Source: Spirochaetota bacterium
GTDB lineage: Bacteria; Spirochaetota; Spirochaetia; DSM-27196; PWMO01
Assembly: GCA_009908925.1 (NCBI GenBank)
Contig: JAAAOH010000318.1
Coordinates: 1 to 57,620 of the forward strand
Reading direction: 5' to 3'
DNA length: 57,620 bases
Within the stretch, counting starts at the first letter, position 1; each line of letters starts with the position of its first letter. The notes beneath the pieces were generated by a model. That model was given only the letters and a program-made list of their open reading frames with translations, was not told the DNA's origin and did not search any database. Made by a program: the position numbers and the translations under genes. Positions 7,920-46,882 of this stretch are shown here, piece after piece.

Positions 7920-9257
7920 ATGAACACCCTGATCGAGAATCTTGACTACGTCGTAACCGACACGGGCGTACTGGAGAATCGCAGCATAGTTATAGAGGGT
8001 GCGCGGATCACGAGTATACGACCTGCCGGTTCCGGCGCGGGGGCGGGCAGCTCAGGGGTGTCGGATGTCTCTCGCACCATATCCGGCACGGGCCGTGCCG
8101 CGTTGGCCGGACTGAAGAACGCGCATACCCACGCGGCGATGACGCTCCTGCGAGGCTACGGCGATGACATGAGGCTGCAGCCCTGGCTGGAGAACCTCAT
8201 CTGGCCGGCCGAGGGCAAGCTGACACCGGAAGACGTCTACTGGGGCACGCGGCTTGCCGCAATCGAAATGATCCGAAGCGGCACCACATTCGCCCACGAC
8301 ATGTACTTCTATCCGGCGGAGGTCGTGCGGGCATTCCGGGACTCAGGGATGCGTGCGGCAGTCGGTCTGGCTCTTTTTGACTTCGGTGATCCGGAGAATC
8401 GTCGCGGGCAGCAGAAGAACGTCGAGTCCTTCCTGCGAGAATATGGCGCGGCGCCGCCGGGCGCCGGTGACCGCGTGTTCCTTACCATGGCGCCGCACAG
8501 CGTGTATACCTGCAGCCCCGAGTTGCTCGTCTGGGCAGCAGAGGTCGCAGAGGCGCAGGGTCTCGTCTACCACACCCACATGAATGAAACGCAGCAAGAG
8601 GTGGATCAATGTCTTTCCGCTCACGGTGTGCGGCCCTTTGTTCACCTCGACAGCATCGGCGTCCTCGAGCGCGTCGGAAGCAGAACGGTTGCGGCGCATA
8701 CCATCTGGCTGGATGAAGCCGAGCTCGATCTCGTGTCAGGCCACGGCGTGACGGTCGTGCATAATCCGGCAAGCAACATGAAGCTCTCTTCCGGGTGTTT
8801 CCCGTGGAAGGAACTGCACGAGCGCGGGGCCCGGATGCTGCTCGCCCCCGATGGCGTTGCCAGTAACAACAGCCTCGACATGTTTGACGAAATGAAGCTC
8901 GCGGCACTTCTGCAGAAACACCACTACGGCGACCCGACACTTCTGCCGGCCGAGGAGACGCTTGCCGTCGCCACCGGCGCGCGCAGCACCGTATTCGGGT
9001 CTCACGGAGTCGGTGGCGCGCTTGCCGAAGGCGGACCCGCGGACCTCGTTCTTGTCGATGTGACTGCCCCCCGCATGACTCCTTCTCACAACCTCGTGAG
9101 CAACCTGGTGTATGCGGCAGATAGCTCGGTGGTGGACACGGTCATCTGCGATGGCGAGCTTCTGATGGAACACGGCTCGGTAGCTGAGGAAGAGACCGTC
9201 GTAGCCGAGGCCTCGCGCTGTGCAGCCGAGCTGGTGCGCCGCGCCCGCTCAGGCTGA
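7920..9257 (+). CDS. amidohydrolase of the MTA/SAH (adenosine-type) deaminase / chlorohydrolase family
   Basis: HTHAAMTLLRGYGDD metal motif, then HTHMNET, HNPASNMKL and APDGVASNNSLDMF. It is collinear with TM0936/MtaD-type deaminases as remembered. Confidence 0.8.
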   Translation: MNTLIENLDYVVTDTGVLENRSIVIEGARITSIRPAGSGAGAGSSGVSDVSRTISGTGRAALAGLKNAHTHAAMTLLRGYGDDMRLQPWLENLIWPAEGKLTPEDVYWGTRLAAIEMIRSGTTFAHDMYFYPAEVVRAFRDSGMRAAVGLALFDFGDPENRRGQQKNVESFLREYGAAPPGAGDRVFLTMAPHSVYTCSPELLVWAAEVAEAQGLVYHTHMNETQQEVDQCLSAHGVRPFVHLDSIGVLERVGSRTVAAHTIWLDEAELDLVSGHGVTVVHNPASNMKLSSGCFPWKELHERGARMLLAPDGVASNNSLDMFDEMKLAALLQKHHYGDPTLLPAEETLAVATGARSTVFGSHGVGGALAEGGPADLVLVDVTAPRMTPSHNLVSNLVYAADSSVVDTVICDGELLMEHGSVAEEETVVAEASRCAAELVRRARSG

Positions 9258-10445
9258 GGAAACGCGCTGCGGAGCGCTTTCGGCGAGCTTCCGAAGCACG
9301 CCGGCAGCATTCGGCGTCTTTGATAGCAGGATCATCGCAGCGATGATGAAGGGCTTGTACCCGGCCTCGCGATAGGTTGCGACCCGGTGCTTCTCGAAGA
9401 CGTCGACCGAGACCTCGCCGCGCTCGCAGCTTACACCGGATATGTCCGCCGGGAGACAGTGCATGTAGAGCGCGTCGTTGGTGGTGCCCATGCGATCGGC
9501 GTTGCACTCCCAGTCCATATGCCTGGCATTTTCCTGCAGGGCCTGCTGCTCCAGTCTCTCAAGCCCGCCCGCGTCCCCGGCGGCGAGGAAATCGGTTCGT
9601 TTCTGCATGACATTGAACGGCGCCCAGCTCTTCGGATAGACGATATCAGCGTCGGCAAACGCCTCGTCCATCGAGTTGCTCACCGAGAATCGTCCGCCGG
9701 CGTTCTGCGCGAACTCACCGGCCTGCGCCTCGAGCTCGGGGACCAGATTATAGCCCTCCGGATAGGCCAGCCGGACGTCCATCCCGAACCGGGTCATAAG
9801 CGAGATAACGCCCTGCGGCACCGACAGCGGCTTGCCGTAGGACGGCGAGTAGGCCCAGGTCATTGCAATCTTCTTGCCGCGGAGTTTCTCGAGACCGCCG
9901 AACTCGTTCGCAAGATGCTGCAGGTCGGCCATGGCCTGGGTGGGATGGTCGCGGTCGCACTGCAGGTTCACGATGCTCGGCCGCCGTTCGAGAAGCCCCG
10001 CCTCATGCGCGTCAGTAAGCGACTCGCCGACTTCGACCATATACTCGTGTCCGTGACCGATGTACATGTCGTCCCGGATGCCGATGACCTCGCTCAGAAA
10101 CGAGATCATGACGGCCGTTTCGCGGACAGTCTCGCCGTGGGCGATCTGACTCTTCTTCTCGTCGAGGTCCTGCACGGCGAGACCGAGGAGATTGGCAGCC
10201 GAGGCAAAGCTGAAGCGCGTCCGGGTCGAGTTGTCACGAAAGAGGGATACGGCAAGCCCGGAATCGAAGATGCGCGGGGAGATGCCGTCCGAACGCAGTC
10301 GGCGAAGCGCCTGCGAAACGGTCAGAACCGCACGGAGCTCGTCCGGGCTGTGGTTCCAGGTCAGAAGGAAATCTGAGCCGGACATCGATTCGAAAGAGAG
10401 CGATTCGAGCTCATGCAACAGTGTGGACATATCGGCAGTGTTCAT
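9249..10445 (-). CDS. ygeW: YgeW-type (knotted) carbamoyltransferase
   Basis: Near full-length match to E. coli YgeW as remembered: FLLTW...PDEL, FRDNSTRTRFS, KSQIAHGETVRETA.MISF, NLQCD.DHPTQ.MADL, KKIAMTWAYSPSYGKPLSVPQG, YMHCLPADISGVSC..GEV. Confidence 0.92.
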   Translation of the reverse strand: MNTADMSTLLHELESLSFESMSGSDFLLTWNHSPDELRAVLTVSQALRRLRSDGISPRIFDSGLAVSLFRDNSTRTRFSFASAANLLGLAVQDLDEKKSQIAHGETVRETAVMISFLSEVIGIRDDMYIGHGHEYMVEVGESLTDAHEAGLLERRPSIVNLQCDRDHPTQAMADLQHLANEFGGLEKLRGKKIAMTWAYSPSYGKPLSVPQGVISLMTRFGMDVRLAYPEGYNLVPELEAQAGEFAQNAGGRFSVSNSMDEAFADADIVYPKSWAPFNVMQKRTDFLAAGDAGGLERLEQQALQENARHMDWECNADRMGTTNDALYMHCLPADISGVSCERGEVSVDVFEKHRVATYREAGYKPFIIAAMILLSKTPNAAGVLRKLAESAPQRVSSA

Positions 10446-10583: not shown

Positions 10584-12053
10584 GTGTCTCCCGTGATCAA
10601 CCTGAAGGTTCAGCCTGATATCCGTCGTCGCAATATCGATCGGTGTCGCGAGCGCTCGATCCTGCTCCCCACCTTTGCCCAGATGCGCAACCCCTCGCAG
10701 ATTTCCGCGTCGGTGCGCAAACGGCTGCGCTCGGTCGGCCTGTGGGACCTCGACCCGCTTAACCTCTTTCGCATCACCTGGAAGAACGAGGCGGTTGATC
10801 ACGGCGGGACGTTTGCCGGCGTCAACGCGATGGAGATCCCGTCCTCGCTGACAGGCGTCCCGGCCCGCATCATCGCACTGGTCGGGCACTGGTTTCCCAC
10901 CGGTGCGCACAAGGTCGGTGCCACCTACGGCTGCCTTGCGCCGGAGCTCGTCCGTGGCGGCTTCGACGCCCAGAAACAGAAAGCGGTCTGGCCCTCGACC
11001 GGCAACTACTGCCGCGGCGGTGCGTACAACTCGGCGCTCCTCGGGTGCGACTCCGTCGCCATCCTTCCGGAGGGGATGAGCAGCGAGCGCTTCGAGTGGC
11101 TGAGGAACATTGCCGGGGAGATCATCTCCACCCCCGGCACCGAAAGCAACGTCAAGGAAATCTTTGACAAGTGCAACGAGATCGATGCGACCCGCGGCGA
11201 TGAAGTCGTCATTTTCAACCAGTTCTCCGAGCTCGGAAACTACCTCTGGCACTACGAAGTGACCGGCTCGGCCATTGCCGAGGTCCTGGAGACGGCGCTT
11301 GCCGACGGCGGACACTACGCGGGCTACGTGTCCTCTACGGGATCGGGCGGGACGCTGGCGGCCGGTGACCGGCTCAAGCAGCTCTACCCGACCAGCGTCA
11401 ACGTTGCGGCCGAGGCGCTGCAGTGCCCCACACTGCTGCGAAACGGATTCGGCGAGCATCGCATCGAGGGGATCGGCGACAAGCACGTGCCGTGGATTCA
11501 CAACGTGCGAAACACCGACATGGTTGTCGGTGTCGACGACAACGACTGTATCGATCTCATGCGGGTATTCAACGAGCCCGCCGGGCATCGATATCTCGAG
11601 GACGCCGGTGTCGATGCCGCCACGGTCCAGGCCCTGCCCATGATCGGCATCTCCGGCATCGGGAATGTCATCGCGGCAATCAAGGCGGCCCGCTACTGGG
11701 AGCTCGGTGCGGATGATGTTCTCGTTACGGTATTCACCGACTCCATGCAGCTGTACAACTCTCGGGTTGCCGAGGAGCGCGAGCGTCACGGGGACCTGGA
11801 TGAGGTGAACGCCGCGCGGGCAGTTGCCGGTGCCCTCGAGCGGCAGTCCATCGACGACACGCTCGAACTGTCCTACTACGAACGGCTTCGCATTCACAAT
11901 CTCAAGTACTACACCTGGATCGAGCAGCAGGGGAAGGACGTGGAAGAACTCAAGGCCCAGTGGTACGACCGCGAGTACTGGCTGCGTGTTCAGGAACGTG
12001 TGGGCGAAATCGACCGGCTCATCGACGAATTCAACGAAGAGGTCCTGGGATAA
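10584..12053 (+). CDS. PLP-dependent fold-type II enzyme (Trp-synthase-beta / cysteine-synthase superfamily), function unknown
   Basis: 489 aa. Probable PLP-lysine motif FPTGAHKVGA (TrpB-like TGAHK) and a glycine loop SSTGSGGT. Long N- and C-terminal extensions. Divergent from ygeW. The start could be GTG 10584 or GTG 10593. Confidence 0.72.
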   Translation: MSPVINLKVQPDIRRRNIDRCRERSILLPTFAQMRNPSQISASVRKRLRSVGLWDLDPLNLFRITWKNEAVDHGGTFAGVNAMEIPSSLTGVPARIIALVGHWFPTGAHKVGATYGCLAPELVRGGFDAQKQKAVWPSTGNYCRGGAYNSALLGCDSVAILPEGMSSERFEWLRNIAGEIISTPGTESNVKEIFDKCNEIDATRGDEVVIFNQFSELGNYLWHYEVTGSAIAEVLETALADGGHYAGYVSSTGSGGTLAAGDRLKQLYPTSVNVAAEALQCPTLLRNGFGEHRIEGIGDKHVPWIHNVRNTDMVVGVDDNDCIDLMRVFNEPAGHRYLEDAGVDAATVQALPMIGISGIGNVIAAIKAARYWELGADDVLVTVFTDSMQLYNSRVAEERERHGDLDEVNAARAVAGALERQSIDDTLELSYYERLRIHNLKYYTWIEQQGKDVEELKAQWYDREYWLRVQERVGEIDRLIDEFNEEVLG

Positions 12054-12116: not shown

Positions 12117-13655
12117 CTAGCCTGCCACCCCGGCCATGAGGCTTCCAACGCGCTCCACTTCGGCGTCGGCGCGGTCGAGCACGCCGACGATGCGTCCCGC
12201 ATAGATCACGGCCACTCTGTCCGAGAGCTCCCGGATCTCATCAAGGTCCTCCGAGATGAGGAGAATCGCGGTGCCGGCATCCCGCTGGGCCAGAAGGGTT
12301 CGATGGATGTACTCGGAGGCACCAATGTCCACACCCCGCGTCGGCTGTGAGGCGATGAGCACGGTCGGCCTGCGCGACAGCTCCCGCGCGAGAATGAGCT
12401 TCTGAATGTTTCCACCGGAGAGGTTCTTGAGCGGTGTCTCGAGGCTCGGTGTTTTCACCGCGTACTCCTTGACGAGGCGCCGGGCGTGGCGCTGCATTTC
12501 CCCGAAGCGAAGGAAGAGCCATCGGCGGAACTGCGAGGATTCGTGGTCCCGCAGAAAGACATTCTCCTCAACCGTGAACTCTCGAATCGCTCCGTCGCGC
12601 ATGCGTTCCTCCGGGATGAAGGATACGCCCGCTTTCACACGCTCGTTGAGGTGTGCTGTGGTGAGGTCCTGTCCGAGAACGTCGATCGTCCCCGAGGAAA
12701 CCAGCCGTACCCCCGCCAGAGCCTCGGCAAGCTCCCGCTGACCGTTTCCCGAGACGCCGGCGAGTCCGAGGATCTCACCGGTATCGACGTGGAGGTCCAC
12801 TCCGCGGACGATCTCCTCACCGCGGTCGCCGGTTACCCGCAGGTCCCGGACGACGAGACCGGCCTCGCCGGGACTGGGCTCGCGGTGGGTCTGCGGCTTG
12901 AGCTCGCGGCCGACCATGAGCGTGACGAGCTCCTCGCGGGTGACCTCGGCGGTGCGTCGCGTTCCCACGGTGATCCCGTCCCGCAGTACGGTCACGCGAT
13001 CGCTCACGTCGAGGACCTCGTGGAGCTTGTGCGAGATGAATAGAAGTGAGTGGCCTTCGGCCACCATCCGTTTGAGCGTGGCGAAGAGATCGCTCACCTC
13101 CTGGGGCGTGAGTACCGCGGTCGGCTCATCGAGAATGATGAGGCTCGCGCCGAGATCGAGGGCCTTGAGGATCTCAACCCGCTGCTGCTCGCCGACCGAA
13201 AGCTGCCAGACGCGCGCGTCGGGATCGACCTGCAGTCCGTAGTCGCGCGAGAGCAGCCGGATCCGCTCGCCGACCCGATCGAGGTCGAGGCGGATACCAC
13301 GACTGGAGCGGCGCCCCAGCGCCACGTTCTCGGCCACGGTCATGGTCGGGATCAGCATGAAGTGCTGGTGGATCATGCCGATACCTGCGCGAATGGCGTC
13401 CGCCGGCGATCGGAACAGGACGGGCGTCCCGTTGATGCGGATCTCTCCCTCGTCGGGCTCGTACATCCCGTAGAGTTGCCGCATCAACGTGCTCTTGCCC
13501 GCCCCGTTCTCCCCGAGAATTGCATGCGCCTCACCGGACCGCACGTCCAAGGACACGCCGTCGTTGGCGCGGACCCCCGGAAACTCCTTCACGATATCGA
13601 CCATCTCCATGTGATCGATGCGCGGCGGTTCGCTCTCCCGGCTGCGTCGGTGCAT
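12117..13655 (-). CDS. BMP-family (nucleoside/purine-type) ABC transporter ATP-binding protein
   Basis: Duplicated ATPase with GENGAGKST, LSVGEQQRVEI, LILDEPT, LSGGNIQK and Q.TRGVDIGA. ATG 13655 is preferred because the longer ORF to 13826 overlaps the upstream binding-protein gene and translates as Arg/Ser/Thr-rich junk. Confidence 0.85.
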   Translation of the reverse strand: MHRRSRESEPPRIDHMEMVDIVKEFPGVRANDGVSLDVRSGEAHAILGENGAGKSTLMRQLYGMYEPDEGEIRINGTPVLFRSPADAIRAGIGMIHQHFMLIPTMTVAENVALGRRSSRGIRLDLDRVGERIRLLSRDYGLQVDPDARVWQLSVGEQQRVEILKALDLGASLIILDEPTAVLTPQEVSDLFATLKRMVAEGHSLLFISHKLHEVLDVSDRVTVLRDGITVGTRRTAEVTREELVTLMVGRELKPQTHREPSPGEAGLVVRDLRVTGDRGEEIVRGVDLHVDTGEILGLAGVSGNGQRELAEALAGVRLVSSGTIDVLGQDLTTAHLNERVKAGVSFIPEERMRDGAIREFTVEENVFLRDHESSQFRRWLFLRFGEMQRHARRLVKEYAVKTPSLETPLKNLSGGNIQKLILARELSRRPTVLIASQPTRGVDIGASEYIHRTLLAQRDAGTAILLISEDLDEIRELSDRVAVIYAGRIVGVLDRADAEVERVGSLMAGVAG

Positions 13656-13671
13656 GCCTCGTATCCTCTGC

Positions 13672-14682
13672 CTATGGTTCCACGCTGACCGAGCCGTCAA
13701 CGATACCTTCGATGGCCGACTCTGCCGCTGCGGTCGCCTCGTCGGGGATGTCGAACTCCTCGTTGTAGGCGATCTTGAGGCCCTCGTTGGCCAGGCTGAG
13801 GATGTACGTCTCACCACCGTAGACACCGTCCTGGGCGTTCATGATCATTTCCTCGAGCATCATCGTCCAGTCGTAGACCTGAGAGGCAACAACCAGATCA
13901 GGGGCCAGTGATGCCTGATCGGCCTGGGTGCCGAACCAGAGCACGTCGCCGGCCTCCTGGGCGGCGCCGATGGAGCCCACGACCGACTGAGAGGACCCGG
14001 TGAGGATGTCCGCACCGTTGGAGATGTGTGTCTGGGCGGCTGCCGTCATCAGTGCCACGTCCGAGAAGGACCCGGTCCAGGTCTGGGAGACCCGCGCGTC
14101 CGGCCGAACGGACTCGACACCCTGCACGAAGCCGCTGATGTAGGTGCGGGCGTCGCCCACCTCGACCGGGCCGGTAACACCGATGCGCCCACTGTCGGTC
14201 ATGAGACCCGCCATCACGCCGTTCACGTAGCCGCCTTCCTCGGCCGCGGCGGTGTAGGCGTAGACGTTGTCGAGGCCGAAGGTGTTCACGTCCGTACCCC
14301 AGGCAAAGGCTGTCTCGGGAAACTCCGGCGCCAGGTCCTCGACGAACGTGCCGTACTGCGAGCCGTGAGCGATCACCAGGTCATAGCCCTGCGATGCATA
14401 GTCGCGCACCGCCGCTGAGGCGTCGGGAACGTTGAACATGTTCTCCGAGTACACCAGCTCGAGAGCGCTCTCACCGCCCATGTCCTCCTGCACGGTCGTC
14501 AGAGCCGACCACATTGACTGGCTGAACGCCGTATCGGTGGTAGCACTCGGCATAACGACCGCAACGCGAAACGGTGCGTCGCCGGCCTCGCCCTCCGCCT
14601 CGGCACCTCCGCCGGCAAACAGCGTGACCGTACCCAGAACCATCAACAGAACCAACGAAATCGAAACTGTTCGCGTGGTCAT
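13672..14682 (-). CDS. BMP-family ABC transporter substrate-binding protein
   Basis: Signal peptide, then the Bmp/PnrA/Med-type pattern (FRVAVVMPSATTDTAFSQS, ...HGSQYG, ...GVTGPVEVGD). No lipobox cysteine. Confidence 0.85.
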   Translation of the reverse strand: MTTRTVSISLVLLMVLGTVTLFAGGGAEAEGEAGDAPFRVAVVMPSATTDTAFSQSMWSALTTVQEDMGGESALELVYSENMFNVPDASAAVRDYASQGYDLVIAHGSQYGTFVEDLAPEFPETAFAWGTDVNTFGLDNVYAYTAAAEEGGYVNGVMAGLMTDSGRIGVTGPVEVGDARTYISGFVQGVESVRPDARVSQTWTGSFSDVALMTAAAQTHISNGADILTGSSQSVVGSIGAAQEAGDVLWFGTQADQASLAPDLVVASQVYDWTMMLEEMIMNAQDGVYGGETYILSLANEGLKIAYNEEFDIPDEATAAAESAIEGIVDGSVSVEP

Positions 14683-14735
14683 ACTCCCTCTCCTTTTCGA
14701 GCGTTGTCTGCCTCCATGGGCAGCTTATGCATGCT

Positions 14736-15668
14736 TCAGTTCTCCCCCCTCAGGAAGGGCTTGTTCAGCGCCGCCGGTTTTCGCCCCCGATACACCGTGA
14801 CCGTGAGTGCAACGATGGTGAGGATGTAGGGCAGCATGTTCGCGAGGCTCGCCGGCACGTTGACGCCCAGCACCTGCAGCCACAGCTGGATCGAGTTAGC
14901 CACGCTGAAGAGCAGGGCGCCAAGCATGACGCCGACCGGCGTCCAACCGCCGAAGTAAACGAGGGCCACCGCGATGAAACCCTGCCCGGCGGTCAGGTTA
15001 TCCTGGAAGAGATTCGTAACCGAGATCGAAAGCGAGGCCCCGGCGAGCCCCGCCAGTACCGCGCCCAGACAGACGCTCATATAGCGTACGAGGTTCACCG
15101 GCACGCCCCGTGAATCGGCCGCTGCCGGGTTCTGCCCCACCGACTTGATCGTCAGACCGATGGTCGTGCGCTCGAGAATCCACCACGAGACGGGCACGAG
15201 GGCGAAGGCGATATAGACGAGGATGGTGTTGTTGAACAGGATCGGGCCGAGGATGGGGATCTCGCCGAGAAGCGGTATCTGCAGCCGCGGAAAGCCGCGA
15301 ACCGTCTGGACGGTCCCGACGAGCTGCTTGAAAAGCAGGCTCGACATCCCGAGGCCGAACATCTGCAGGCCGATGCCGCTCACGCCCTGCTCCGCTTTGA
15401 GTGTCACACTGACGAAAGACATCATGAGGCCCATGACCAGCCCGATGATCATCGCCACGAGGACACCGAGCCAGAGGCTGGCGGTTGTCAGGACCGCGTA
15501 GAATGCCCCGAAGGCTGCGAGAAGCATGATACCGTCCACGCCGAGATTGAGGACGCCGGAGTTCTGCGAGAAGGTCTCCCCGAGGGCGGCGAACAGCAAC
15601 GGGGTGGCCAGCGTGAGCATCGTGCTGAGCATGCCGGTGAGTACCGAGACGTTGAATACTTCGTTCAT
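14736..15668 (-). CDS. BMP-family ABC transporter permease
   Basis: Hydrophobic multi-span protein starting MNEVFNVSVL. ATGA overlap with the upstream permease. The N-terminal 70 codons of the listed ORF are Arg-rich and overlap that gene. Confidence 0.85.
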   Translation of the reverse strand: MNEVFNVSVLTGMLSTMLTLATPLLFAALGETFSQNSGVLNLGVDGIMLLAAFGAFYAVLTTASLWLGVLVAMIIGLVMGLMMSFVSVTLKAEQGVSGIGLQMFGLGMSSLLFKQLVGTVQTVRGFPRLQIPLLGEIPILGPILFNNTILVYIAFALVPVSWWILERTTIGLTIKSVGQNPAAADSRGVPVNLVRYMSVCLGAVLAGLAGASLSISVTNLFQDNLTAGQGFIAVALVYFGGWTPVGVMLGALLFSVANSIQLWLQVLGVNVPASLANMLPYILTIVALTVTVYRGRKPAALNKPFLRGEN

Positions 15669-24893: not shown

Positions 24894-24965
24894 ACCGGTC
24901 GTCAGCTTACCCGGCATGCCGAGATCCGTACAGGTGTATCGACTTGCGAACTTTGGCGGTTCCTT

Positions 24966-24994: not shown

Positions 24995-25017
24995 CGGGGC
25001 GGTATGGGAGGTTCCCT

Positions 25018-38260: not shown

Positions 38261-38263
38261 GCC

Positions 38264-39640
38264 ATGGCGTACGAGCTACTGATTCGCGGCGGGACGGTGG
38301 TGACGGCGGAGGGCGTCGAGGTTGCCGACATCGGGATCGAAGACGGCCGGATCGCCGAGGTTGCCGGTGAGATGAGTGGCGGGCGCGGTCCCGGCACGCA
38401 GGAGATCGATGCCCGGGGGCTTCACGTGTTCCCGGGCGTCGTGGATGCCCATGTGCACTTCAACGATCCCGGGCGCGACCATTGGGAAGGCGCGGCCACC
38501 GGTTCGGCGGCGCTCGCAGCAGGCGGGGGCACCGTCTTCATCGACATGCCCCTCAACTCATCCCCGCCCGTCCTCGACGGCGCATCCTTCGACGCCAAGC
38601 TCCAGGCCTGCGAAGGGCGATCCTTCACCGACTTTGCGCTCTACGGGGGGCTCACCCCCGTGAATCTCGATTCCATGGAGGAGCTCGCCGAGCGGGGCGT
38701 TGCCGGCTACAAGGCCTTCATGTGCCCGAGCGGCATTGACGATTTCCAGTGGTCCGACGACGTCACGCTGTACCGCGGCATGGAGATCGCCGCCCGGGCG
38801 GGGCTGCCCGTGCTCCTCCACGCCGAGAGCGCGCCTATCCTTGCCGCGCTGAGTGCAGCGTCTCAGGGTTCCGGGGAGGGACCGGGCGCCGCGAACGCCG
38901 GCGCCGGCGGTGCGCCAACCGCCGTGCGCCGCTTCCTCGACTCGCGGCCGGTCATTGCCGAGCTCGAGGCCATCAACCGGGCGCTTCTCTTCGCCGAGGA
39001 GACCGGCTGCCGAATTCACGTCGTCCACATCACCAACCGCCGCGGTGTCGAGCTCATCCGTCGGGCCGTTGCCGGCGGCCGGGTCGACGCGTCCGCCGAG
39101 ACCTGTCCCCACTACCTGTTCTTCACCGACCGGGACATGGAGACGATCGGCGCCCGAGCGAAGTGCGCGCCGCCATTGCGCGAGGAGGACATTCGCCGCG
39201 GCCAGATCGAGGCCCTGCTCGCCGGTGAGATCGACACCGTGGGCTCGGACCACTCGCCGGCGCCGTCGGACATGAAGGACCGCGAGGATTTCTCTACCGC
39301 CTGGGGGGGCATCCCGGGTGCCCAGACGACGCTACGCACCCTGCTGACGGTGGAAATACCCCCGGAGCGCATCGCGGCGGTGGCCGCACAGAATCCAGCC
39401 GAGCGCTTCGGACTGGCGGGGAAGGGCCGCATCGAAGTGGGCTACGATGCCGACCTCGCGCTGGTGCGTGTCGATACCGAGGCTGAGCTTACCAGCGACG
39501 AGCTTCGTGACCGCCATCGGCTGAGTCCCTACTTGGGGCGCAGGTTGTGCGGCCACGTGGAGCGGGTCCTGCTTCGGGGACGCGAGGTAGACGACACGCC
39601 GCGCGGGCGGTTCCTCCGGCCGGCTGACGCGCGGCGCTAG
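38264..39640 (+). CDS. allB: allantoinase
   Basis: DAHVHFNDPGR.HWEG, GG.T...DMPLN, LLHAE, HVVHI, ETCPHYL, GSDHSP.P, WGGI.G.Q and RH..SPY.GR, collinear with E. coli AllB as remembered. Confidence 0.9.
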   Translation: MAYELLIRGGTVVTAEGVEVADIGIEDGRIAEVAGEMSGGRGPGTQEIDARGLHVFPGVVDAHVHFNDPGRDHWEGAATGSAALAAGGGTVFIDMPLNSSPPVLDGASFDAKLQACEGRSFTDFALYGGLTPVNLDSMEELAERGVAGYKAFMCPSGIDDFQWSDDVTLYRGMEIAARAGLPVLLHAESAPILAALSAASQGSGEGPGAANAGAGGAPTAVRRFLDSRPVIAELEAINRALLFAEETGCRIHVVHITNRRGVELIRRAVAGGRVDASAETCPHYLFFTDRDMETIGARAKCAPPLREEDIRRGQIEALLAGEIDTVGSDHSPAPSDMKDREDFSTAWGGIPGAQTTLRTLLTVEIPPERIAAVAAQNPAERFGLAGKGRIEVGYDADLALVRVDTEAELTSDELRDRHRLSPYLGRRLCGHVERVLLRGREVDDTPRGRFLRPADARR

Positions 39641-41423: not shown

Positions 41424-41424
41424 G

Positions 41425-41928
41425 GTGCCGGTGACGATCGTGACCGGCGGCCGTGATGCCGGCAAGACGCAGTGGGTCCGCGAGCTCTCCGACCGGCGGC
41501 CGGCGTGGGGGTTCATCTCGCCGAAGGTCTTCACCGGCGGGGCCTTCGTGGGGTACGACCTCCTGTTCCTTCCCGACGGAGACCGGATGCCGCTTGCGCG
41601 CCTCGCCGCGGGTCCCGGCGCCGAGAGCTCCGTCCCCGACGATGAGAGCTTCCGCTTCCGGCGGTTCCGCTTCAATGGGGCGGCCTTCGACCGGGCGCGA
41701 AATGAGGCACGGCGCGCGCTTGCCGGTGGCGGTCCCAGGCCGGAGGCGGCCATTCTCCTCGATGAGGTCGGGCCGCTCGAGGTAGACGGCGGCGGGTTTC
41801 GCGAGGTGCTCGACGGCATTCTTGCGGCGGCCCGCACGGCTGTCCTGACGACGAGACCGGGCCTTGTGGGCTGGCTCACCGAGTGGGCCGGGGCGGACCG
41901 TGTCGAGGTCATCGATCTTGGTCCCTGA
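41425..41928 (+). CDS. small P-loop NTPase (THEP1/DUF2478-like), function unknown
   Basis: GTG start 1 nt after the mocA stop. Walker A is TGGRDAGKT and Walker B-like is ILLDEVGPLE. About 167 aa. The upstream part of the listed 255-aa ORF overlaps mocA out of frame. Confidence 0.6.
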   Translation: MPVTIVTGGRDAGKTQWVRELSDRRPAWGFISPKVFTGGAFVGYDLLFLPDGDRMPLARLAAGPGAESSVPDDESFRFRRFRFNGAAFDRARNEARRALAGGGPRPEAAILLDEVGPLEVDGGGFREVLDGILAAARTAVLTTRPGLVGWLTEWAGADRVEVIDLGP

Positions 41929-42025
41929 CTTCAGGTGGCGGATGACCGCCACGACTGTGTTGAACGGCAAAACCTGCTTGAGTAGATTAGGAACACGAGG
42001 CAACCACCCTGCCCGGAGGTCAACC

Positions 42026-43108
42026 ATGAACGTGCATCATCGAGTCGTATCCGTTTTCGTCGTCCTGCTTCTGCTCGCCCCCCTGCCGCTCGCAGCTGAA
42101 GGTGAGCCGGAGCCGCCCGCCGAGATCACCGTCGAAGACTCCTTCGGGCGCACGGTGGAGCTCCCCGAGGTCCCCTCGCGGATCGTGCTTGCCGGGCGTG
42201 CAACCATCATGCTTGTCGATGCGATCTATCTCTTTCCGGGTGTCGGCGAGCGAATCGTGGCTGTCGGCCGCACCAACCAGGGCATCGGAGATTTCTTTCC
42301 CGTGCTCGACGACGATCCGGGGGCGAAGCGTCGCCTCGGCCGCAGCGCCGGCGCCGAGGAAATCCTCGCGTCAGACCCCGATCTCGTCATCCTGAAGTCC
42401 CAGATGCGAAGCAACCTCGGCACGGCCCTCGAGAACGCCGGCGCCACGGTCCTGTATCTCGATCTCGAAACCCCCGAGCAGTACGCCCGAGACATACGCG
42501 TGCTCGGTGACGTCCTCGATCAGCCCGAGCGGGCGGAAGAGATTGTGTCGCTCTTCCGGCGACGCGCCGCGGCGCTGCGTGAGGCCACCGGCGGCCTGGA
42601 GCGCCCGAAGGTGCTCGTGCTCTCCTATGCCCGAAGCGGCGAGGAGTACAGCTTCCGGGTGGCCCCGGAGTCCTGGATCCAGACCGATCAGGTTCGGCTG
42701 GCCGGAGGTGAGCCGATCTGGACGGACGCTGCGACCAGTCCCGGATGGAATCAGATCGAGTTCGAGCAGATCGCCGCATGGGATCCCGCGGTGATCGTGC
42801 TTATTTCATACCGCACCGACGTCGCCGAGCCGAAGCGGCGTGTGCTCGCGGATGAGCTATGGGCGGAGCTGCAGGCCGTTCGGAACGGACGTGTATATGC
42901 GATGCCCTCCGACTACTACAGCTGGGGCCAGCCGGATACACGCTGGATACTCGGCGCGGAGTGGATGGCCTACGCCCTCCATCCCGGGCGCTTTGAGCAG
43001 CCCTTCGAGGAGCGCATCCGCGTCTTCTTCCGCGAGTTCTACGGTATCGGGGCGCAGGACTACCGCGTCGAGATCGCACCGCGACTCTCCGGGGATCTCG
43101 TTGAGTAG
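42026..43108 (+). CDS. ABC transporter substrate-binding protein, iron-siderophore/cobalamin (FhuD/BtuF, cluster A) type
   Basis: Signal peptide (MNVHHRVVSVFVVLLLLAPLPLAA). Periplasmic_binding_2-like layout (RIV.....T.ML..I......IVAV, DPDLVI, WDP.VIV). GGAGG RBS before ATG 42026. Confidence 0.78.
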   Translation: MNVHHRVVSVFVVLLLLAPLPLAAEGEPEPPAEITVEDSFGRTVELPEVPSRIVLAGRATIMLVDAIYLFPGVGERIVAVGRTNQGIGDFFPVLDDDPGAKRRLGRSAGAEEILASDPDLVILKSQMRSNLGTALENAGATVLYLDLETPEQYARDIRVLGDVLDQPERAEEIVSLFRRRAAALREATGGLERPKVLVLSYARSGEEYSFRVAPESWIQTDQVRLAGGEPIWTDAATSPGWNQIEFEQIAAWDPAVIVLISYRTDVAEPKRRVLADELWAELQAVRNGRVYAMPSDYYSWGQPDTRWILGAEWMAYALHPGRFEQPFEERIRVFFREFYGIGAQDYRVEIAPRLSGDLVE

Positions 43109-43127
43109 CGCTGCTGCCAATCCCGAC

Positions 43128-44111
43128 ATGCGGCGACGCAGCTTCCTGCCGCTCGCACTGCTCTTCGTGGTGCTCTTTGCCGCGTCGCTGCTGCTCGGCC
43201 GCTATCCGGAGGCCGGGTTCGTTGCCCCGCAGCGGCTCTTCGCAGATCCGATGGGGGTGCGGGTCTTCAGCTTCCTGCGACTCCCGCGCGTCATCACGGC
43301 GAGCCTCCTCGGAGCGAGCCTGGCCGGCGCAGGAAGCGCCTTCCAGATGCTGTTTCGGAATCCCCTGGTCGAACCCGGCTTTCTCGGCGTGACCCAGGGG
43401 GCGGCGTTCGGCGCAGCAGGCTCCATTCTGTTCCTCCCCGGCGTCCCGGGTGCCGTTCAGGTTTCGGCGATCGTCTTCGCCGTTGCCGGTTTGTCGCTGT
43501 CCTTCTCGGTAGCGCGACGGCTGAAGTTTGGCGGCTGGGTTATCCGGATGGTCATTTCAGGCATTGCCGTCTCTGCCCTCTTTGCCGCCGCCGTCGGTAT
43601 TCTCAAGTACACCGCGGATCCCCTGTCCGAGCTGCCGGAGCTCACCTTCTGGATGCTCGGCGGACTTCAGGGTGTGACCTGGCGGGAAACCCTGGGCGTT
43701 GCCGTGGTTAGCGTGCCCGGACTGACTCTGCTGTATGCATATCGCTGGCGCCTCAATCTCCTGTCTCTCGACGACCTCACTGCCTTCTCCCTCGGCGCCA
43801 GCCCGGCCCGCCAGCGGATACTTCTGCTCCTCGCGGCCTCTCTGGCCACGGCCGGCGTGACGGCTGTTGCGGGAATCGTCGGCTGGGTCGGGCTCCTCGT
43901 GCCGCATCTTGCGCGGCGATTCTACGGAGCGGAAGGAAGCCGGGTCATGCCGGCCTCCATGATGATGGGGGCCATTATGGTGCTGATTTGCGACGACATC
44001 GCGCGTTCCGCCATGGTCTACGAGTTCCCGCTCGGCATTCTCACCTCGCTCCTCGGCGCGGGGCTGTTCCTGATGCTTCTTGCATCGGGTCGCGTGAGGT
44101 TCAGGCGATGA
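43128..44111 (+). CDS. FecCD-family ABC transporter permease
   Basis: 327 aa, multi-span, with RLPR...A.L.GA.LA.AG...Q....NPL..P..LGV..GA and a C-terminal P.GI.T...G..F motif. Confidence 0.85.
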   Translation: MRRRSFLPLALLFVVLFAASLLLGRYPEAGFVAPQRLFADPMGVRVFSFLRLPRVITASLLGASLAGAGSAFQMLFRNPLVEPGFLGVTQGAAFGAAGSILFLPGVPGAVQVSAIVFAVAGLSLSFSVARRLKFGGWVIRMVISGIAVSALFAAAVGILKYTADPLSELPELTFWMLGGLQGVTWRETLGVAVVSVPGLTLLYAYRWRLNLLSLDDLTAFSLGASPARQRILLLLAASLATAGVTAVAGIVGWVGLLVPHLARRFYGAEGSRVMPASMMMGAIMVLICDDIARSAMVYEFPLGILTSLLGAGLFLMLLASGRVRFRR

Positions 44112-44878
44112 TCGTCATCCGGATCGAGGAACTGAGCTTCGGCTACGACGCGGAGCGGCCCGTTATCGCGGGGCTTTCGCTCGAGGTCGAGGCCGGCAGC
44201 GCCACCGTCATCCTCGGTCCGAACGGGGCGGGGAAGAGCACCCTTCTGAGTCTGCTCCTGGGCTATAACCTGCCGCGCGAGGGGAGCATCGAGATCCTCG
44301 GCGCGCCCCTGTCGAGCTACCAGCGCCATGAGCTCGGACAACTCATCGCCTACGTCTCCGACGAAACCTATCTGCCGTTCAACTACTCGGTGCTCGACTA
44401 TGTGCTCCTCGGCCGTGGTGCGCGCGTCCCGACCTGGGGTCTCCCGGCATCGGCGGATTACCGGGCCCTCGAAGATGCGATCGACCGCATCGGCATCGGC
44501 AGCCTTCGCAGTCGAAGCGTGCAGGAGCTCTCCGCCGGCGAGCTGCAGCTCGCATCGGTCGCTCGAGCCCTTGCACAGGAGCCCCGGATTCTGCTCATGG
44601 ACGAGCCGACCAGTCACCTCGACCCGGCAAACGCGCTGTCGGTCTTCCGGCTCGTTCGCGAGCTCACGGGAGCGGGGCTCACGGTGCTCTTCACGACCCA
44701 CGACCCGGTGCATGCGCGACAGGTAGCGGATCGGGCGGTACTGCTCGGCCGAAGTGGGCTCGTTGCCGCCGGTCCTGCAGCGGAGGCCCTCTCCACGGAT
44801 AACCTCGAGCGACTCTACGGTGTGCGGTTCGAGGAGGCCGCGGCCGGGTCGCGACGGATTCCCTTCGTGGAGTTGTGA
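44108..44878 (+). CDS. ABC transporter ATP-binding protein (FepC/BtuD-like)
   Basis: ATGA overlap with the permease. GPNGAGKSTL, LSAGELQ, LLMDEPTSHLD and TTHDP motifs. Confidence 0.88.
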   Translation: MIVIRIEELSFGYDAERPVIAGLSLEVEAGSATVILGPNGAGKSTLLSLLLGYNLPREGSIEILGAPLSSYQRHELGQLIAYVSDETYLPFNYSVLDYVLLGRGARVPTWGLPASADYRALEDAIDRIGIGSLRSRSVQELSAGELQLASVARALAQEPRILLMDEPTSHLDPANALSVFRLVRELTGAGLTVLFTTHDPVHARQVADRAVLLGRSGLVAAGPAAEALSTDNLERLYGVRFEEAAAGSRRIPFVEL

Positions 44879-44964: not shown

Positions 44965-45906
44965 TTACGGTACGATGTGGGTGTCGGACTCGCCCTCGAG
45001 GGCGGCCGCAAGATGCTCCGGGTCGGTGATGATGCCCTGGCGGCCGGTCGCTTCGACGAACTCTATCATCGTCTGGATCTTCGGCAGCATGCTGCCGCGC
45101 GCAAAGTGGCCGTCGGCCGTGTAATCCCGCGCCGCAGCGACACTCATCTCCTCGACGGCGCGCTGGACGGGTTTCCCGTAGTTCAGATAGACCTTCTCAA
45201 CTGCCGTGGAGATGACGAAGCGATCTGCCCCGAGGCTGCGGGCAAGCAGGCTCGCGGCGAGGTCCTTGTCGATGACCGCCTCCACGCCGGCGTAGCTTCC
45301 GTCCGGGGTGCGGATGACGGGGATCCCGCCGCCGCCGGCGGCGATGGTTATGGTGCCGCTTTCGACGAGCTGACGGATGACCGGTAGCTCGAGGATCTCG
45401 AGCGGGCGCGGCGAGGGCACGACCCAGCGCCAGCCACGCCCCGCGTCCTCGGCAACAGCCCACCCGTCTCGGTCGCGGCGAGCCATGGCCTCCTTCTCTG
45501 ACATGAAGGTTCCGATAGGCTCCGACGGATCTGAAAAGGACGGGTCCGCCTCGTCGACGAGCACCTCGGTGACGATTGTCAAGACATTGCGTTGCTGCTC
45601 GAGTCCGCCGATGACGTTACGGATGGCGGTCTGGATATTGTAATCGAGGGCACCCTGAGTATCGGCCACGCAGGAGTCGAGCGGTACCATGTGCAGCTCG
45701 GCTGCCCCGAGCTGGGCTTGCCGGAGGATGAAGCTCACCTGCGGGCCGTTTCCGTGCACGATAGCGATACGATGGTCGGAAGCGCGCACCGGCCGGAGGT
45801 TGCGGGCGGTTGCAAAGGCCGCCTCGTACTGGGCCGGAACGGTGACGTGCTGCGCGTCGGTGATGAGTGAGTTCCCGCCGATGGCGATGACGATGGTTTC
45901 GCTCAC
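44965..45906 (-). CDS. arcC: carbamate kinase
   Basis: IAIGGNSL, VHGNGPQV, GGGGIPV and the ...DKDLA..LLA... pattern. 313 aa. Confidence 0.9.
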   Translation of the reverse strand: MSETIVIAIGGNSLITDAQHVTVPAQYEAAFATARNLRPVRASDHRIAIVHGNGPQVSFILRQAQLGAAELHMVPLDSCVADTQGALDYNIQTAIRNVIGGLEQQRNVLTIVTEVLVDEADPSFSDPSEPIGTFMSEKEAMARRDRDGWAVAEDAGRGWRWVVPSPRPLEILELPVIRQLVESGTITIAAGGGGIPVIRTPDGSYAGVEAVIDKDLAASLLARSLGADRFVISTAVEKVYLNYGKPVQRAVEEMSVAAARDYTADGHFARGSMLPKIQTMIEFVEATGRQGIITDPEHLAAALEGESDTHIVP

Positions 45907-46882
45907 GTTGCCTCCAGCGGCATGAACTCGAAGGCGGCCACGTCGAAGAGGCCCATGTCCGTAAGCTTGATCTCGGGGATCACCGGAAGCGCCATGAAGG
46001 AGAGGGCCGTGAAGGGGTCGATGTCACGTCGTACCCCGAGGCGCTCGCGTGCAATCTCGGTGAGCGCCGCCATCCGCCGGCTGAGCTCCTGTGCCGGCTC
46101 ACCGGTCATGAGCCTGGAGATCGGCAGGGGCAAGCTCTCGAGCACTTCACCGTCTGCAACGATGCACATCCCTCCGCCGATACGAACGAGCTCTTCGGCT
46201 GCGCGGAGCATGTCCGCATCCGAATCCCCGAGGATGAGCAAGTTGTGCGAGTCGTGTGCGTTGGTTGTGGCCATCGCACCGCCGCGCGCACCGAAACCGC
46301 GTATGAGGCCCAGGCCGCCACTGCCGGTCCGGCGGTGGCGCTCGATCACGTTCACGGTGTCGCCCTGCAGCGGGAGGGAGAAGTCGGTCTCGGTGATCAA
46401 TGCGACGTTCACCGTGTCGGAGACCTTCGCCCGATCGGGCACACCTACCGAGAACAGTGGCGCGCCATTCTCGGCTGCAAGCTCGCCCCGCTTGAAGACA
46501 TCCCGAACCCGGAAGTCGGTGAGGTCGTCTACCACCGCCAAGTCTGCAAGCATTCCCGGCGCAAGGGCGCCACGGCCGTGCGGAGGTTGTAGTCGATGTG
46601 GCCCTCCGCTATGAGGTCCGCCGGCTGCTTGTCGTCGGTGCAGAATGCGCAGAGGTGTGCGGTATGCGGGTCGACCCCCTCGATGAGGGTCGTGAGGTTG
46701 CGAGCAGCCGAGCCGTCGCGAATGAGCACGCGCATGCCGAGCCCCCCGATCAGCCCGTCGTCAACGGCCACGTCGGTCTGCAGAACCTCGTGTGTGTATA
46801 CGTTTACCACCCGGGTATTCTTGAGTACCAGCGTGGCGGGTCTCCTGCACGTGGCGACCTCGATCAAACGGCCTCTGTTCAT
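45903..46882 (-). pseudogene. ade: adenine deaminase pseudogene (internal deletions plus frameshift)
   Basis: The N-terminal ~50 aa (LVLKNTRVVNVYT.EV...DVAV.DG.I.G.G) are joined directly to the IR.GSAA.NL...F.TDD....DL...GHID segment. The catalytic HxH-containing core is therefore missing. A second gap and a frame change near 46553-46575 precede the intact-looking C-terminal domain (GALAPGMLADLAVVDDL ... ATTNAHDSHNL...). Confidence 0.75.

Follow-up and report, generated by a model that had tools for sequence, protein, structure and literature searches.

A purine-catabolism island of an uncultured spirochaete pairs the uricase route with genes of the reductive 2,8-dioxopurine route

The stretch of DNA analysed here, called the window in the following, is the complete contig of a Spirochaetota metagenome-assembled genome (MAG; 57,620 nucleotides, 57.6 kb). 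It carries a purine-catabolism island of this uncultured spirochaete, the core of which consists of two operons diverging from a 123-bp spacer. The minus-strand operon (24894-16914) comprises ygfK, ssnA, ygeY and a gene for a fused 2Fe-2S and molybdenum (Mo) enzyme and covers the upper part of the reductive breakdown of urate via 2,8-dioxopurine. The plus-strand operon (25018-39640) is largely translationally coupled; it starts with the Mo, 2Fe-2S and flavin adenine dinucleotide (FAD) subunits of a xanthine dehydrogenase (XDH), a damaged 8-oxoguanine deaminase gene and a further FAD subunit with a second fused Mo enzyme, and continues with allE, a gene similar to ketol-acid reductoisomerase (KARI), allC::uraD, uricase, hiuH and allB. 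Its gene identities, its gene order, its conservation in relatives and the purifying selection acting on it follow from the data directly, and we regard gene content and conservation as secure. Purine-related genes cover positions ~7920-54671 and so reach beyond 46882, where the original prediction had placed the end of the cluster.

Genes were called via third-position G+C, and the open reading frames (ORFs) were then scanned against NCBIfam and Pfam. NCBIfam figures are given as bits versus the curated cut-off of the family, and Escherichia coli K-12 proteins (locus L001) were compared with the window by tblastn. The two operons and two further genes of the reductive branch are made up as follows:

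9249..10445, minus strand: YgeW, knotted carbamoyltransferase (NF005538 647 bits vs 453; TIGR03316 633 vs 500)
16914..19727, minus strand: fused 2Fe-2S and molybdopterin hydroxylase, here XdhD_op, with no adjoining FAD subunit (TIGR03311 Se_dep_XDH 669 bits vs 830)
19724..20929 (ORF to 20965), minus strand: YgeY, M20 hydrolase (NF009555 484 bits vs 321)
20944..22305, minus strand: SsnA, ring-opening amidohydrolase and marker of the reductive pathway (NF005540 483 bits vs 444)
22302..24894, minus strand: YgfK homologue (TIGR03315 726 bits vs 835; best family, below cut-off)
24895..25017, no strand: divergent intergenic region of 123 bp between the reductive operon (minus) and the XDH/uricolysis operon (plus)
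25018-27180, plus strand: XDH-type Mo subunit (pucD/XdhA, pucE/XdhC and XdhB are the best models for the three subunits, below equivalog cut-offs)
27149-27655, plus strand: XDH-type 2Fe-2S subunit, ATGA-coupled to the FAD gene
27652-28548, plus strand: XDH-type FAD subunit, ATGA-coupled to the 2Fe-2S gene
28608..29648, plus strand: 8-oxoguanine deaminase with an internal deletion (NF006055 506 bits vs 532, profile positions 112-452 only)
29655-30518, plus strand: FAD subunit, here FAD2 (Pfam FAD_binding_5), ATGA overlap with XdhD2
30515-33403, plus strand: fused 2Fe-2S and Mo subunit, here XdhD2 (XdhA-type models 530 bits vs 780)
33372..34136, plus strand: (S)-ureidoglycine aminohydrolase AllE (TIGR03214 270 bits vs 200)
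34157..35140, plus strand: KARI-like oxidoreductase (KARI_N and KARI_C; NF004017 322 bits vs 336)
35137..36983, plus strand: allC::uraD fusion gene, split here (AllC models; 2-oxo-4-hydroxy-4-carboxy-5-ureidoimidazoline (OHCU) decarboxylase part 36501-36983, TIGR03164 174 bits vs 96)
37017..37910, plus strand: cofactor-independent, O2-requiring urate oxidase (TIGR03383 326 bits vs 168)
37907..38260, plus strand: 5-hydroxyisourate (HIU) hydrolase with C-terminal YRGS (TIGR02962 128 bits vs 87), ATGA overlap with the uricase gene
38264..39640, plus strand: allantoinase AllB (TIGR03178 485 bits vs 358)
44965..45906, minus strand: carbamate kinase (NF009007 349 bits vs 266)

Selection was estimated as the ratio of nonsynonymous to synonymous substitutions (dN/dS, Nei-Gojobori) for 15 genes from both branches, comparing the window with the relative L093/L095 at a dS of 0.35-0.62. 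On the reductive side, family searches led to no re-assignment of the genes first named ssnA, ygeY, ygeW and ygfK: the first three score above the named cut-offs, and YgfK is the best family for the fourth. By tblastn, YgeW is 61% identical to its E. coli counterpart (dN/dS 0.10), YgeY 47% (dN/dS 0.05), SsnA 47% (TIGR03314 462 vs 455.5) and the carbamate kinase 40% to E. coli YqeA (dN/dS 0.07).

On the oxidative side, the uricase aligns end to end with the Arthrobacter globiformis uricase (2yzb/1vax) at 210 bits and retains the motifs YGK, TDT.KNT, DRILAT, SLQAT and PNQHH, which we take to hold the catalytic and urate-binding residues; its dN/dS is 0.09. It is identical (100%) to NBF41516.1, annotated as 'urate oxidase', and SsnA corresponds to NBF41504.1 of the same contig. 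The allantoinase (dN/dS 0.11) is the sole hydantoinase-class cyclic amidohydrolase on the contig, and the AllC-type M20 protein matches TIGR01879 (hydantoinase/carbamoylase) with 300 bits vs 204 and NF006771 (allantoate amidohydrolase) with 345 vs 399. Of the full uricolytic set that had been predicted, uraD, uricase, hiuH, allB, allC and allE are all present, and allC/uraD is split by a frameshift.

The operon structure agrees in large part with the ATGA-coupled ygfK-ssnA-ygeY-xdhD unit first described. ATGA overlaps link ygfK with ssnA and ygeY with the Mo enzyme gene; at the ssnA/ygeY junction there is a 14-nt spacer with AAGGAG instead, if ygeY begins at its second in-frame start codon, ATG 20929, which is the probable start in view of the AAGGAG upstream of it. 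On the plus strand, ATGA overlaps connect FeS/FAD, FAD2/XdhD2, KARI/allC and uricase/hiuH. The spacer between the operons contains an AT-rich block, CGATTATACAGAATTGT(A/T)GATAAT..TGCAAAAGGAA, that is conserved with the relative L004 and partly with L002, and on its plus strand a sigma-70-like site (TTGCAA-17-TATAAT, 10/12 matches). A scan of the window with Rfam detected neither a riboswitch nor any other RNA element.

Relatives with both pathways were traced through the closest homologues of SsnA, of the uricase and of the pyridoxal phosphate (PLP) enzyme PALP489 to their contigs. Five more assemblies or pairs of assemblies, all from related spirochaetes, show the same pairing, with a uricase identity from 90% down to 55%:

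L093+L095: one 106-kb ENA contig, ~85% DNA identity, collinear
L004: Logan contig, SsnA 82%, with allC::uraD, KARI-like gene, allE, deaminase and XDH opposite ygfK-ssnA-ygeY-Mo; grouped with it L087 (uricase 84%), holding the oxidative half and the right-hand part
L002+L092: one ENA study, SsnA 65%, uricase 67%
L089+L091: one 91-kb contig of the Joint Genome Institute (JGI), ~55%, SsnA-uricase distance 18.6 kb
L096+L097: one 3.9-Mb chromosome, uricase 57%, SsnA-uricase distance 10.7 kb

Besides, we inspected ±10 kb around SsnA in at least 80 other GTDB species; these loci belong mostly to Spirochaetota, Enterobacterales, Vibrionaceae, Ignavibacteriota, Bacteroidota and Negativicutes, and the window's own MAG and clade are not among them. 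Counts over the 80 loci refer throughout to the matches listed. The loci come from a search of genome contigs with an SsnA alignment, and no relative above 50% identity is among the matches listed. Genes for uricase, HIU hydrolase, OHCU decarboxylase, AllC, AllE and the KARI-like protein occur in none of the 80 listed loci (0/80 within ±10 kb); in the window itself, the uricase gene lies 14.7 kb from ssnA and thus beyond such a view. In the comparison of ssnA neighbourhoods, uricase accompanies the gene in the five related spirochaete assemblies or pairs and, within ±10 kb, in none of the listed GTDB loci. All 15 genes compared, from both branches, have dN/dS values of 0.03-0.19, and therefore both branches are kept by selection. 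The combination of the O2-dependent uricase route with the ygeW/ygeY/ssnA/ygfK set, which was the central claim of the original prediction, is thus borne out by family models, by recurrence in related assemblies and by purifying selection.

The reductive urate pathway has been worked out stepwise in two recent studies (Li et al., 2025, PMC12507026; Liu et al., 2025, bioRxiv 10.1101/2025.04.24.650524) and taken up in a commentary. Urate is converted to 2,8-dioxopurine by XdhD/YgfM in E. coli or by XdhAC in Clostridium sporogenes, the Mo enzymes of the latter requiring the selenium cofactor trait that depends on SelD; 2,8-dioxopurine then undergoes ring reduction (YgfK) and ring opening (SsnA) to ureidomethyl-hydantoin, which HyuA converts to 2,3-diureidopropionate; YgeW phosphorolyses one ureido group to carbamoyl phosphate, from which carbamate kinase yields ATP; YgeY takes off the other ureido group, and YgeX turns the resulting 2,3-diaminopropionate into pyruvate and ammonia (PMC12507026; 10.1101/2025.04.24.650524). 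Both papers and the commentary assign the uricase route to aerobes and the 2,8-dioxopurine route to anaerobes (PMC12507026; 10.1101/2025.04.24.650524). In the literature library searched, we found no paper describing both urate routes encoded side by side.

Compared with the E. coli cluster ygeW-ygeX-ygeY-hyuA-yqeA...ygfK-ssnA-ygfM-xdhD, the island shares orthologues of YgeW, YgeY, SsnA, YgfK and YqeA, a fused 2Fe-2S and Mo enzyme next to ssnA/ygeY, MocA-like and XdhC-family genes and an XDH nearby. It differs in that the contig is without YgeX, HyuA, YqeB, YqeC and the sigma-54 regulator YgeV, in an operon Mo enzyme that stands without YgfM and shares just 26% identity with XdhD, in a YgfK without the FAD/NAD(P)H module, in two extra PLP enzymes and in the uricase route next door; to our knowledge, E. 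coli has no uricase. Klebsiella has the Hpx oxidative route. For the oxidative half, one of the closest known systems is the puc regulon of Bacillus subtilis, which comprises the XDH genes pucABCDE, pucL for uricase/OHCU decarboxylase, pucM for HIU hydrolase, pucH for allantoinase and pucF for allantoate amidohydrolase. As in B. subtilis, XDH, uricase, HIU hydrolase, OHCU decarboxylase, allantoinase, allantoate amidohydrolase and purine uptake genes are grouped, and pucD/pucE/pucC-type models are among the best matches of the Mo systems. Unlike in B. subtilis, the fusion is AllC::UraD and not UraD::uricase, a KARI-like gene lies between allE and allC, and the operon is divergently paired with a reductive pathway. 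The island also resembles SsnA loci of Spirochaetota, Bacteroidota and Ignavibacteriota (such as Sphaerochaeta and the Bacteroides uniformis MAG L063), which combine SsnA, YgfK, YgeY and YgeW with a 487-aa (amino acid) CysK-like and a ThrC-like protein and have no E. coli-type YgeX; in contrast to the island, these loci have a full-length YgfK with GxGxxG, and among the matches listed none has oxidative genes or a KARI-like gene within 10 kb.

The YgfK homologue is shorter than its E. coli counterpart, to which it is 40% identical; the best TIGR03315 stretch covers profile positions 2-605 of 1012, and the start at ATG 24894 was set by alignment with relatives. It has ~863 aa in the window versus 1032 in E. 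coli, and 863-931 residues across the window, L002 (4799-7573), L004 (7293-10001) and L090 (7212-10007). In an alignment of these four, GxGxxG is absent and E. coli residues ~650-893 are mostly deleted; the GltD-like NAD(P)-binding match spans residues 483-664 here versus 446-950 in E. coli YgfK, and Fer4_20 and a C-terminal 2x[4Fe-4S]-like region are retained. Among the matches listed, 58 of the 64 GTDB loci with a YgfK match hold a full-length protein (1029-1170 codons, motif at codon 540-690), and the remaining six hold short frames. As judged from these alignments, the loss of the FAD/NAD(P)H module is specific to the uricase-bearing clade; in L097, YgfK is replaced by a 304-aa DHO_dh-type protein. 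The YgfK homologue is presumably a 2,8-dioxopurine reductase with a different electron donor.

In this context, the clostridial variant of the pathway (C. sporogenes and Clostridioides difficile) is instructive, in which XdhD/XdhAC works without YgfM, UacX replaces YgfK and ferredoxin has been proposed as donor. The window shares with it a Mo enzyme without FAD subunit and a ring reductase without FAD/NAD(P)H domain, and the DHO_dh-type gene at the place of ygfK in L097 resembles the UacX arrangement of C. difficile. In contrast to the clostridial variant, the window retains a YgfK homologue as reductase, has YgeW and carbamate kinase instead of the hydrolytic UacY and encodes a uricase, and selenium markers were not found on the contig. 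Because the operon Mo enzyme has no FAD subunit and the ring reductase no FAD/NAD(P)H module, a donor other than a pyridine nucleotide is implied, and by analogy with the proposal for the clostridial enzymes the reductive enzymes probably draw their electrons from a ferredoxin-type donor rather than from NAD(P)H. As a separate observation, the 3.9-Mb chromosome has genes for 2-oxoacid:ferredoxin oxidoreductase (POR_N, TPP_enzyme_C, POR; L096:1-2161) at a distance of ~4 kb upstream from its uricolysis operon, which fits a ferredoxin-linked electron supply but may be a coincidence.

All three Mo hydroxylase systems originally assigned to 16914-19727, 25018-28548 and 29655-33403 are supported by family models, and each of the three enzymes shares 27-34% identity with E. 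coli XdhA and with XdhD alike. The label xdhD for the operon gene needs correction: the best match of E. coli XdhD in the window is 30515-33403 (32%, 353 bits), ahead of the operon gene at 16914-19727 (26%, 239 bits), and neither is a clear orthologue. FAD2-XdhD2 moreover has the architecture of E. coli YgfM-XdhD. In the window, L087 and L093, this cassette separates the 8-oxoguanine deaminase gene from allE; it is missing from L004 (about as close, with 82-86% protein identity), L092, L088/L089 and L096, and has a dN/dS of 0.15, among the higher values of the island. Orthologues of XdhD_op (60-89%) follow ygeY in L002, L004, L090, L095 and L097, with a dN/dS of 0.11. Since XdhD_op is conserved beside ygeY in every relative and FAD2-XdhD2 is variable, XdhD_op is the likelier of the two to be the urate-to-2,8-dioxopurine reductase, as a candidate by context. 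The XDH set faces the start of the reductive operon (ygfK or preceding amidohydrolases) in L002, L004, L090 and L092 as well. The column of Glu606, the proposed urate-orienting residue, falls in an E. coli-specific insertion or loop, where the alignment is unreliable.

As originally noted, the contig has no recognisable ygeX or hyuA orthologue: by tblastn, the best match of YgeX is 23% over 130 aa to a ThrC-like gene and that of HyuA 29% to the allantoinase. Neither a ygeX nor a hyuA-like gene occurs in the parts of L093+L095 that were read, and the unread 5.4 kb are filled by the rest of ssnA, ygfK and a Mo-subunit gene; a hyuA-like gene upstream of ygfK would therefore not fit in this relative. 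In L004, too, nothing is encoded between ygfK and the XDH genes. In more distant relatives, L002, L090 and L097, the YgeX proteins are 47-49% identical to E. coli YgeX (the L002 copy scores NF006058 500 bits vs 276), and a HyuA-like cyclic amidohydrolase (30-32% to HyuA; TIGR03178 313 vs 358) is encoded just upstream of ygfK in L002/L090 and of ygeY in L097. The sub-lineage of the window has thus lost both genes from its island. Two PLP enzymes of fold type II are encoded in the island:

10584..12053, plus strand: PALP489 (Pfam PALP only; CysK models 95 bits vs 351)
47003..48151, plus strand: ThrC-like enzyme, ~382 aa (PALP 249 bits; threonine synthase models below cut-off)

PALP489 belongs to a family of 486-489 aa with an invariant PTGAHKVGA motif and 62-94% identity across Spirochaetota, including the cultured Sphaerochaeta (Sphaerochaeta globosa); the family's members carry no annotation other than 'cysteine synthase' or 'PLP-dependent enzyme'. 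Its AlphaFold2 model (predicted local distance difference test score, pLDDT, 87) has a CysK/beta-cyanoalanine-synthase-like core with helical N- and C-terminal extensions, and the top Foldseek matches are cysteine synthase and beta-cyanoalanine synthase (target-normalised template modelling score ~0.8); the prediction thus gives a confident CysK-like fold and no specific function. The modelled fold suggests beta-elimination or beta-replacement on a beta-substituted alanine, e.g. diaminopropionate or albizziin. The gene has a dN/dS of 0.08 and adjoins SsnA in 34 of the 80 listed GTDB loci. The ThrC-like enzyme matches threonine synthases of the PDB with ~155 bits and has 382-aa orthologues in L087 and L093; a 517-aa reading of its ORF, from 46598, was discarded as over-extension by comparison with relatives. 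Its homologues (40-74% identity) occur in 36 of the 80 listed loci, both PLP enzymes together in 30, and an E. coli-type YgeX in 9, the latter two sets never overlapping among the matches listed. In L002, L090 and L097, PALP489 and YgeX are found side by side, which rules out PALP489 as a plain replacement of YgeX; since both coexist in uricase-bearing relatives, PALP489 is an extra conserved component and no simple stand-in. The original statement that other PLP enzymes and amidohydrolases sit in the place of YgeX and HyuA was accordingly dropped: relatives hold YgeX and a HyuA-like protein alongside the CysK-like PLP enzyme, and the amidohydrolase at 7920-9257 is nearest to methylthioadenosine/S-adenosylhomocysteine (MTA/SAH) deaminases.

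The KARI-like protein is always encoded between allE and allC, with 79-97% identity, in L004 (286-1269), L087 (7218-8201), L088 (7085-8068), L092 (7186-8169), L093 (7113-8096) and L096 (7265-8248). With the lowest dN/dS of the genes tested (0.03), it surpasses its neighbours in conservation. The canonical AYFETVNELK reads AYAKSIRSLR in each of the clade's seven copies, with both glutamates replaced, and DNFEEQ is retained; the acidic residues of DNFEEQ (D..E) and AYFETVNELK (E...E) are, we presume, the metal-binding residues of KARI. Because both glutamates are replaced in all seven copies, a true KARI is unlikely, and the gene probably encodes not a ketol-acid reductoisomerase (IlvC) but a divergent paralogue. 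It is the only unassigned oxidoreductase in the operon and a candidate for the missing ureidoglycolate step, e.g. oxidation to oxalurate. In the literature library searched, we found no paper linking KARI to ureide catabolism.

Three genes on this contig are damaged, two of them in the plus-strand operon and the third further to the right:

45903..46882, minus strand: adenine deaminase remnant (Adenine_deam_C only; 216-aa ORF 45903-46553, the C-terminal domain)

The 8-oxoguanine deaminase shows an in-frame loss of ~111 codons (residues ~10-120) versus the 457-aa orthologues in L004, L087 and L093, and full-length orthologues score 637 vs 532 with NF006055. The deletion junction lies at an 8-nt near-repeat (GCCGAGCT / GCGGAGCT). 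Going by the fold, the first metal-binding motif should have gone with these codons, and the enzyme is probably inactive. Since the retained part is still at a dN/dS of 0.09, the lesions are recent or MAG consensus errors. In allC::uraD, tblastn and DNA comparison revealed a 1-nt deletion (AAA to AA at 36430-36432); the allC frame then runs out of frame to 36837, and uraD can start only at the internal ATG 36501. The two genes are fused in L004, L087, L092 and L093 (600-627 aa) and separate in L088/L089 and L096, and the frameshift is either a real mutation or an error of the MAG consensus. The adenine deaminase has lost ~250 codons through three deletions (~100, 80 and 550 nt), as seen from fragmentary tblastn/blastn matches; it is intact with 574 aa in L087 (TIGR01178 603 vs 472) and in L093/L094, where it has the same two domains, and comparison with these relatives rules out the 216-aa ORF as a stand-alone C-domain protein. 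Within this stretch, DNA identity to L093 rises to 93-97% versus ~85% (81-85%) elsewhere, which may reflect recent recombination or a mixed-strain assembly. The lesions spare the core enzymes of both urate routes except the allC tail.

The remaining genes of the island are the following:

7920..9257, plus strand: TRZ/ATZ-family amidohydrolase, deaminase-like (Pfam Amidohydro_1; all NCBIfam matches below cut-off)
12117..16789, minus strand: BMP-family ABC transporter with ATPase, substrate-binding protein and two permeases (NCBIfam and Pfam; same position in L095)
39637-40788, minus strand: XdhC-family gene (best match XdhC family, below cut-off)
40779-41423, plus strand: MocA-like cytidylyltransferase (120 bits vs 186; 31% to E. 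coli MocA by tblastn)
~41347-41922, plus strand: NTPase_1-like P-loop protein (tblastn with the 198-aa protein of L087, 51%)
41864..44878, plus strand: BtuF/BtuC/BtuD-type ABC transporter (Peripla_BP_2/FecCD; same position in L087, L092, L093)
49017-53720, minus strand: second BMP-family ABC transporter (family scans)
53823-54671, minus strand: purine-nucleoside phosphorylase (NF006054 274.5 bits vs 218)

The first BMP-type transporter, a probable importer of purines or nucleosides, follows the minus-strand operon; to its left lie PALP489 and ygeW as a divergent pair and then the deaminase-like amidohydrolase, convergent with ygeW. The latter has its best PDB match in the MTA/SAH deaminase 4f0r (258 bits) and an orthologue with 91% aa identity in L095 (dN/dS 0.09), and it occupies the position that YgeX has in L002, L090 and L097. 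As its nearest structures are MTA/SAH and related deaminases and not hydantoinases, we dropped it as the leading idea for a HyuA substitute. After allB come the XdhC-family, MocA-like and NTPase_1-like genes, a trio for Mo-cofactor maturation that is kept in L087, L092 and L093, then the BtuFCD-type transporter, carbamate kinase, the adenine deaminase remnant and the ThrC-like PLP enzyme; an alpha/beta hydrolase, the second BMP-type transporter and purine-nucleoside phosphorylase form the right end. Of the accessory genes listed in the original prediction, ygeW and carbamate kinase score above their cut-offs, and for the MocA-like and XdhC-family genes these families are the best matches below cut-off. 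An ORF at 40785-41912 on the minus strand was treated as spurious, having no family match and overlapping better-supported genes. Left of the island, the 665-aa protein at 5880-7877 is similar to adenosylcobalamin-dependent ribonucleoside-triphosphate reductase (TIGR02505 250 bits vs 340, match from ~residue 164).

Taken as a whole, we favour, with moderate confidence, a model in which urate is a branch point, handled by uricase with O2 and by the reductive branch without it. Purines and nucleosides would enter via the two BMP-type transporters, the phosphorylase and the deaminases would trim them, and the three-subunit XDH would turn them into urate by oxidation. In the presence of O2, urate would pass through uricase, HIU hydrolase, OHCU decarboxylase, allantoinase, allantoate amidohydrolase and AllE to ureidoglycolate, with the KARI-like enzyme acting afterwards. 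Without O2, the operon Mo enzyme would reduce urate to 2,8-dioxopurine and the short YgfK the ring, both with a low-potential donor; SsnA would open the reduced ring, YgeW and carbamate kinase would convert a ureido group via carbamoyl phosphate to ATP, and YgeY would release diaminopropionate. For the opening of the hydantoin and the deamination, the HyuA and YgeX steps, the allantoinase and the two PLP enzymes would be candidates, as would genes outside this contig. The urate-reducing Mo enzyme, the electron donor, the switching by O2 and the cover of the HyuA and YgeX steps are the parts of the model that we infer. Facultative organisms often carry an oxic and an anoxic route for one substrate.

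Several points speak against this model. No ureidoglycolate enzyme (AllA, AllD, UAH) was detected among the ORFs scanned. XdhD_op shares just 26-28% identity with E. coli XdhD and misses the TIGR03311 cut-off; its putative substrate is suggested by its context. YqeB and YqeC, the markers of the selenium cofactor, are absent from the contig (by tblastn, YqeC has no match and YqeB matches the XdhC-family gene weakly); genes of this trait (SelD, YqeB, YqeC) could be encoded in another part of the genome. Neither the contig nor the island of the closest relative encodes a YgeX or HyuA orthologue, so the reductive branch as written is incomplete here, and the relatives L002, L090 and L097 (56-72% identity) do keep a true YgeX beside ygeW. 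Neither an O2-sensing regulator nor a riboswitch was found, and the three damaged genes could point either to ongoing decay of the island in this strain or to flaws in the MAG consensus.

An unlikely alternative is that the branches serve different purines rather than different O2 regimes and that both operons run side by side, the minus-strand operon starting not from urate but from another oxopurine, e.g. 2,8-dioxopurine or 8-oxopurines that one of the additional Mo hydroxylases and deaminases would make from adenine or purine. With 27-34% identity to XdhA and XdhD, no Mo enzyme of the island is clearly orthologous to a proven urate reductase, deaminases of several kinds (MTA/SAH-deaminase-like, 8-oxoguanine, adenine, guanine) are encoded in the island and its relatives, and the FAD2-XdhD2 cassette comes and goes among close relatives, all of which would suit such a division of labour. 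However, SsnA, YgfK, YgeY and YgeW are orthologous to enzymes whose substrates derive from urate via 2,8-dioxopurine, and in the window, L002, L004, L090 and L092 the reductive operon directly faces a urate-producing XDH.

We consider it distinctly improbable that the reductive branch is a relic, truncated in this sub-lineage, with no flow from urate to pyruvate and the uricase route alone complete. This reading would explain why the HyuA-like protein and YgeX of L002, L090 and L097 are missing from the window and from the parts of L093+L095 that were read, why YgfK has lost its NAD(P)H module and why three other genes on the contig are damaged. Yet the frames of YgeW, YgeY, XdhD_op and PALP489 are intact, with dN/dS values of 0.05-0.11 at a dS of ~0.5, the short YgfK is conserved from 100% to ~50% identity, which speaks for function, and 30 of the 80 other SsnA loci, among the matches listed, also do without YgeX and hold the same two PLP enzymes. 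That the contig is a chimera of the uricase operon of an aerobe and the ssnA cluster of an anaerobe, as its metagenomic assembly, its deletions versus close relatives and the 93-97% stretch within an 81-85% alignment might suggest, is extremely improbable, given the same gene order in other samples and assemblers (including the 91-kb and 106-kb contigs and the 3.9-Mb chromosome), an even G+C of ~65% (58-69% across the window) and the translational coupling of XDH and uricolysis genes.

Beyond the dual-regime model itself, its parts can be joined into a bolder scheme, which we think improbable in its entirety: the spacer of 123 bp would be one control region for both fates of urate at a regulated branch point, the reductive route would be driven by ferredoxin with a stripped YgfK, the PLP enzymes would replace YgeX (on diaminopropionate or albizziin) and the allantoinase or another amidohydrolase HyuA, the KARI-like enzyme would oxidise ureidoglycolate to oxalurate, and both branches would end in a carbamoyl compound that yields ATP via carbamoyl phosphate and carbamate kinase. 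The shared downstream branch through ygeW and arcC, brought up in the original prediction, is likewise a conjecture.

Each individual pathway and its parts are already known. What is new is that the two pathways are physically paired as divergent operons and kept so in relatives, that YgfK has lost its NAD(P)H module in this clade, and that three conserved proteins as yet uncharacterised (PALP489, the ThrC-like and the KARI-like protein) accompany them. The advance is incremental unless switching or substitute enzymes are shown by experiment; these enzymes bear on the electron donor and the order of the late steps of the pathway, on the correction of genome annotations and on the choice of enzyme variants for engineered uricolytic probiotics. 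A clade in which purifying selection keeps both routes offers a natural setting for studying how cells decide between the two.

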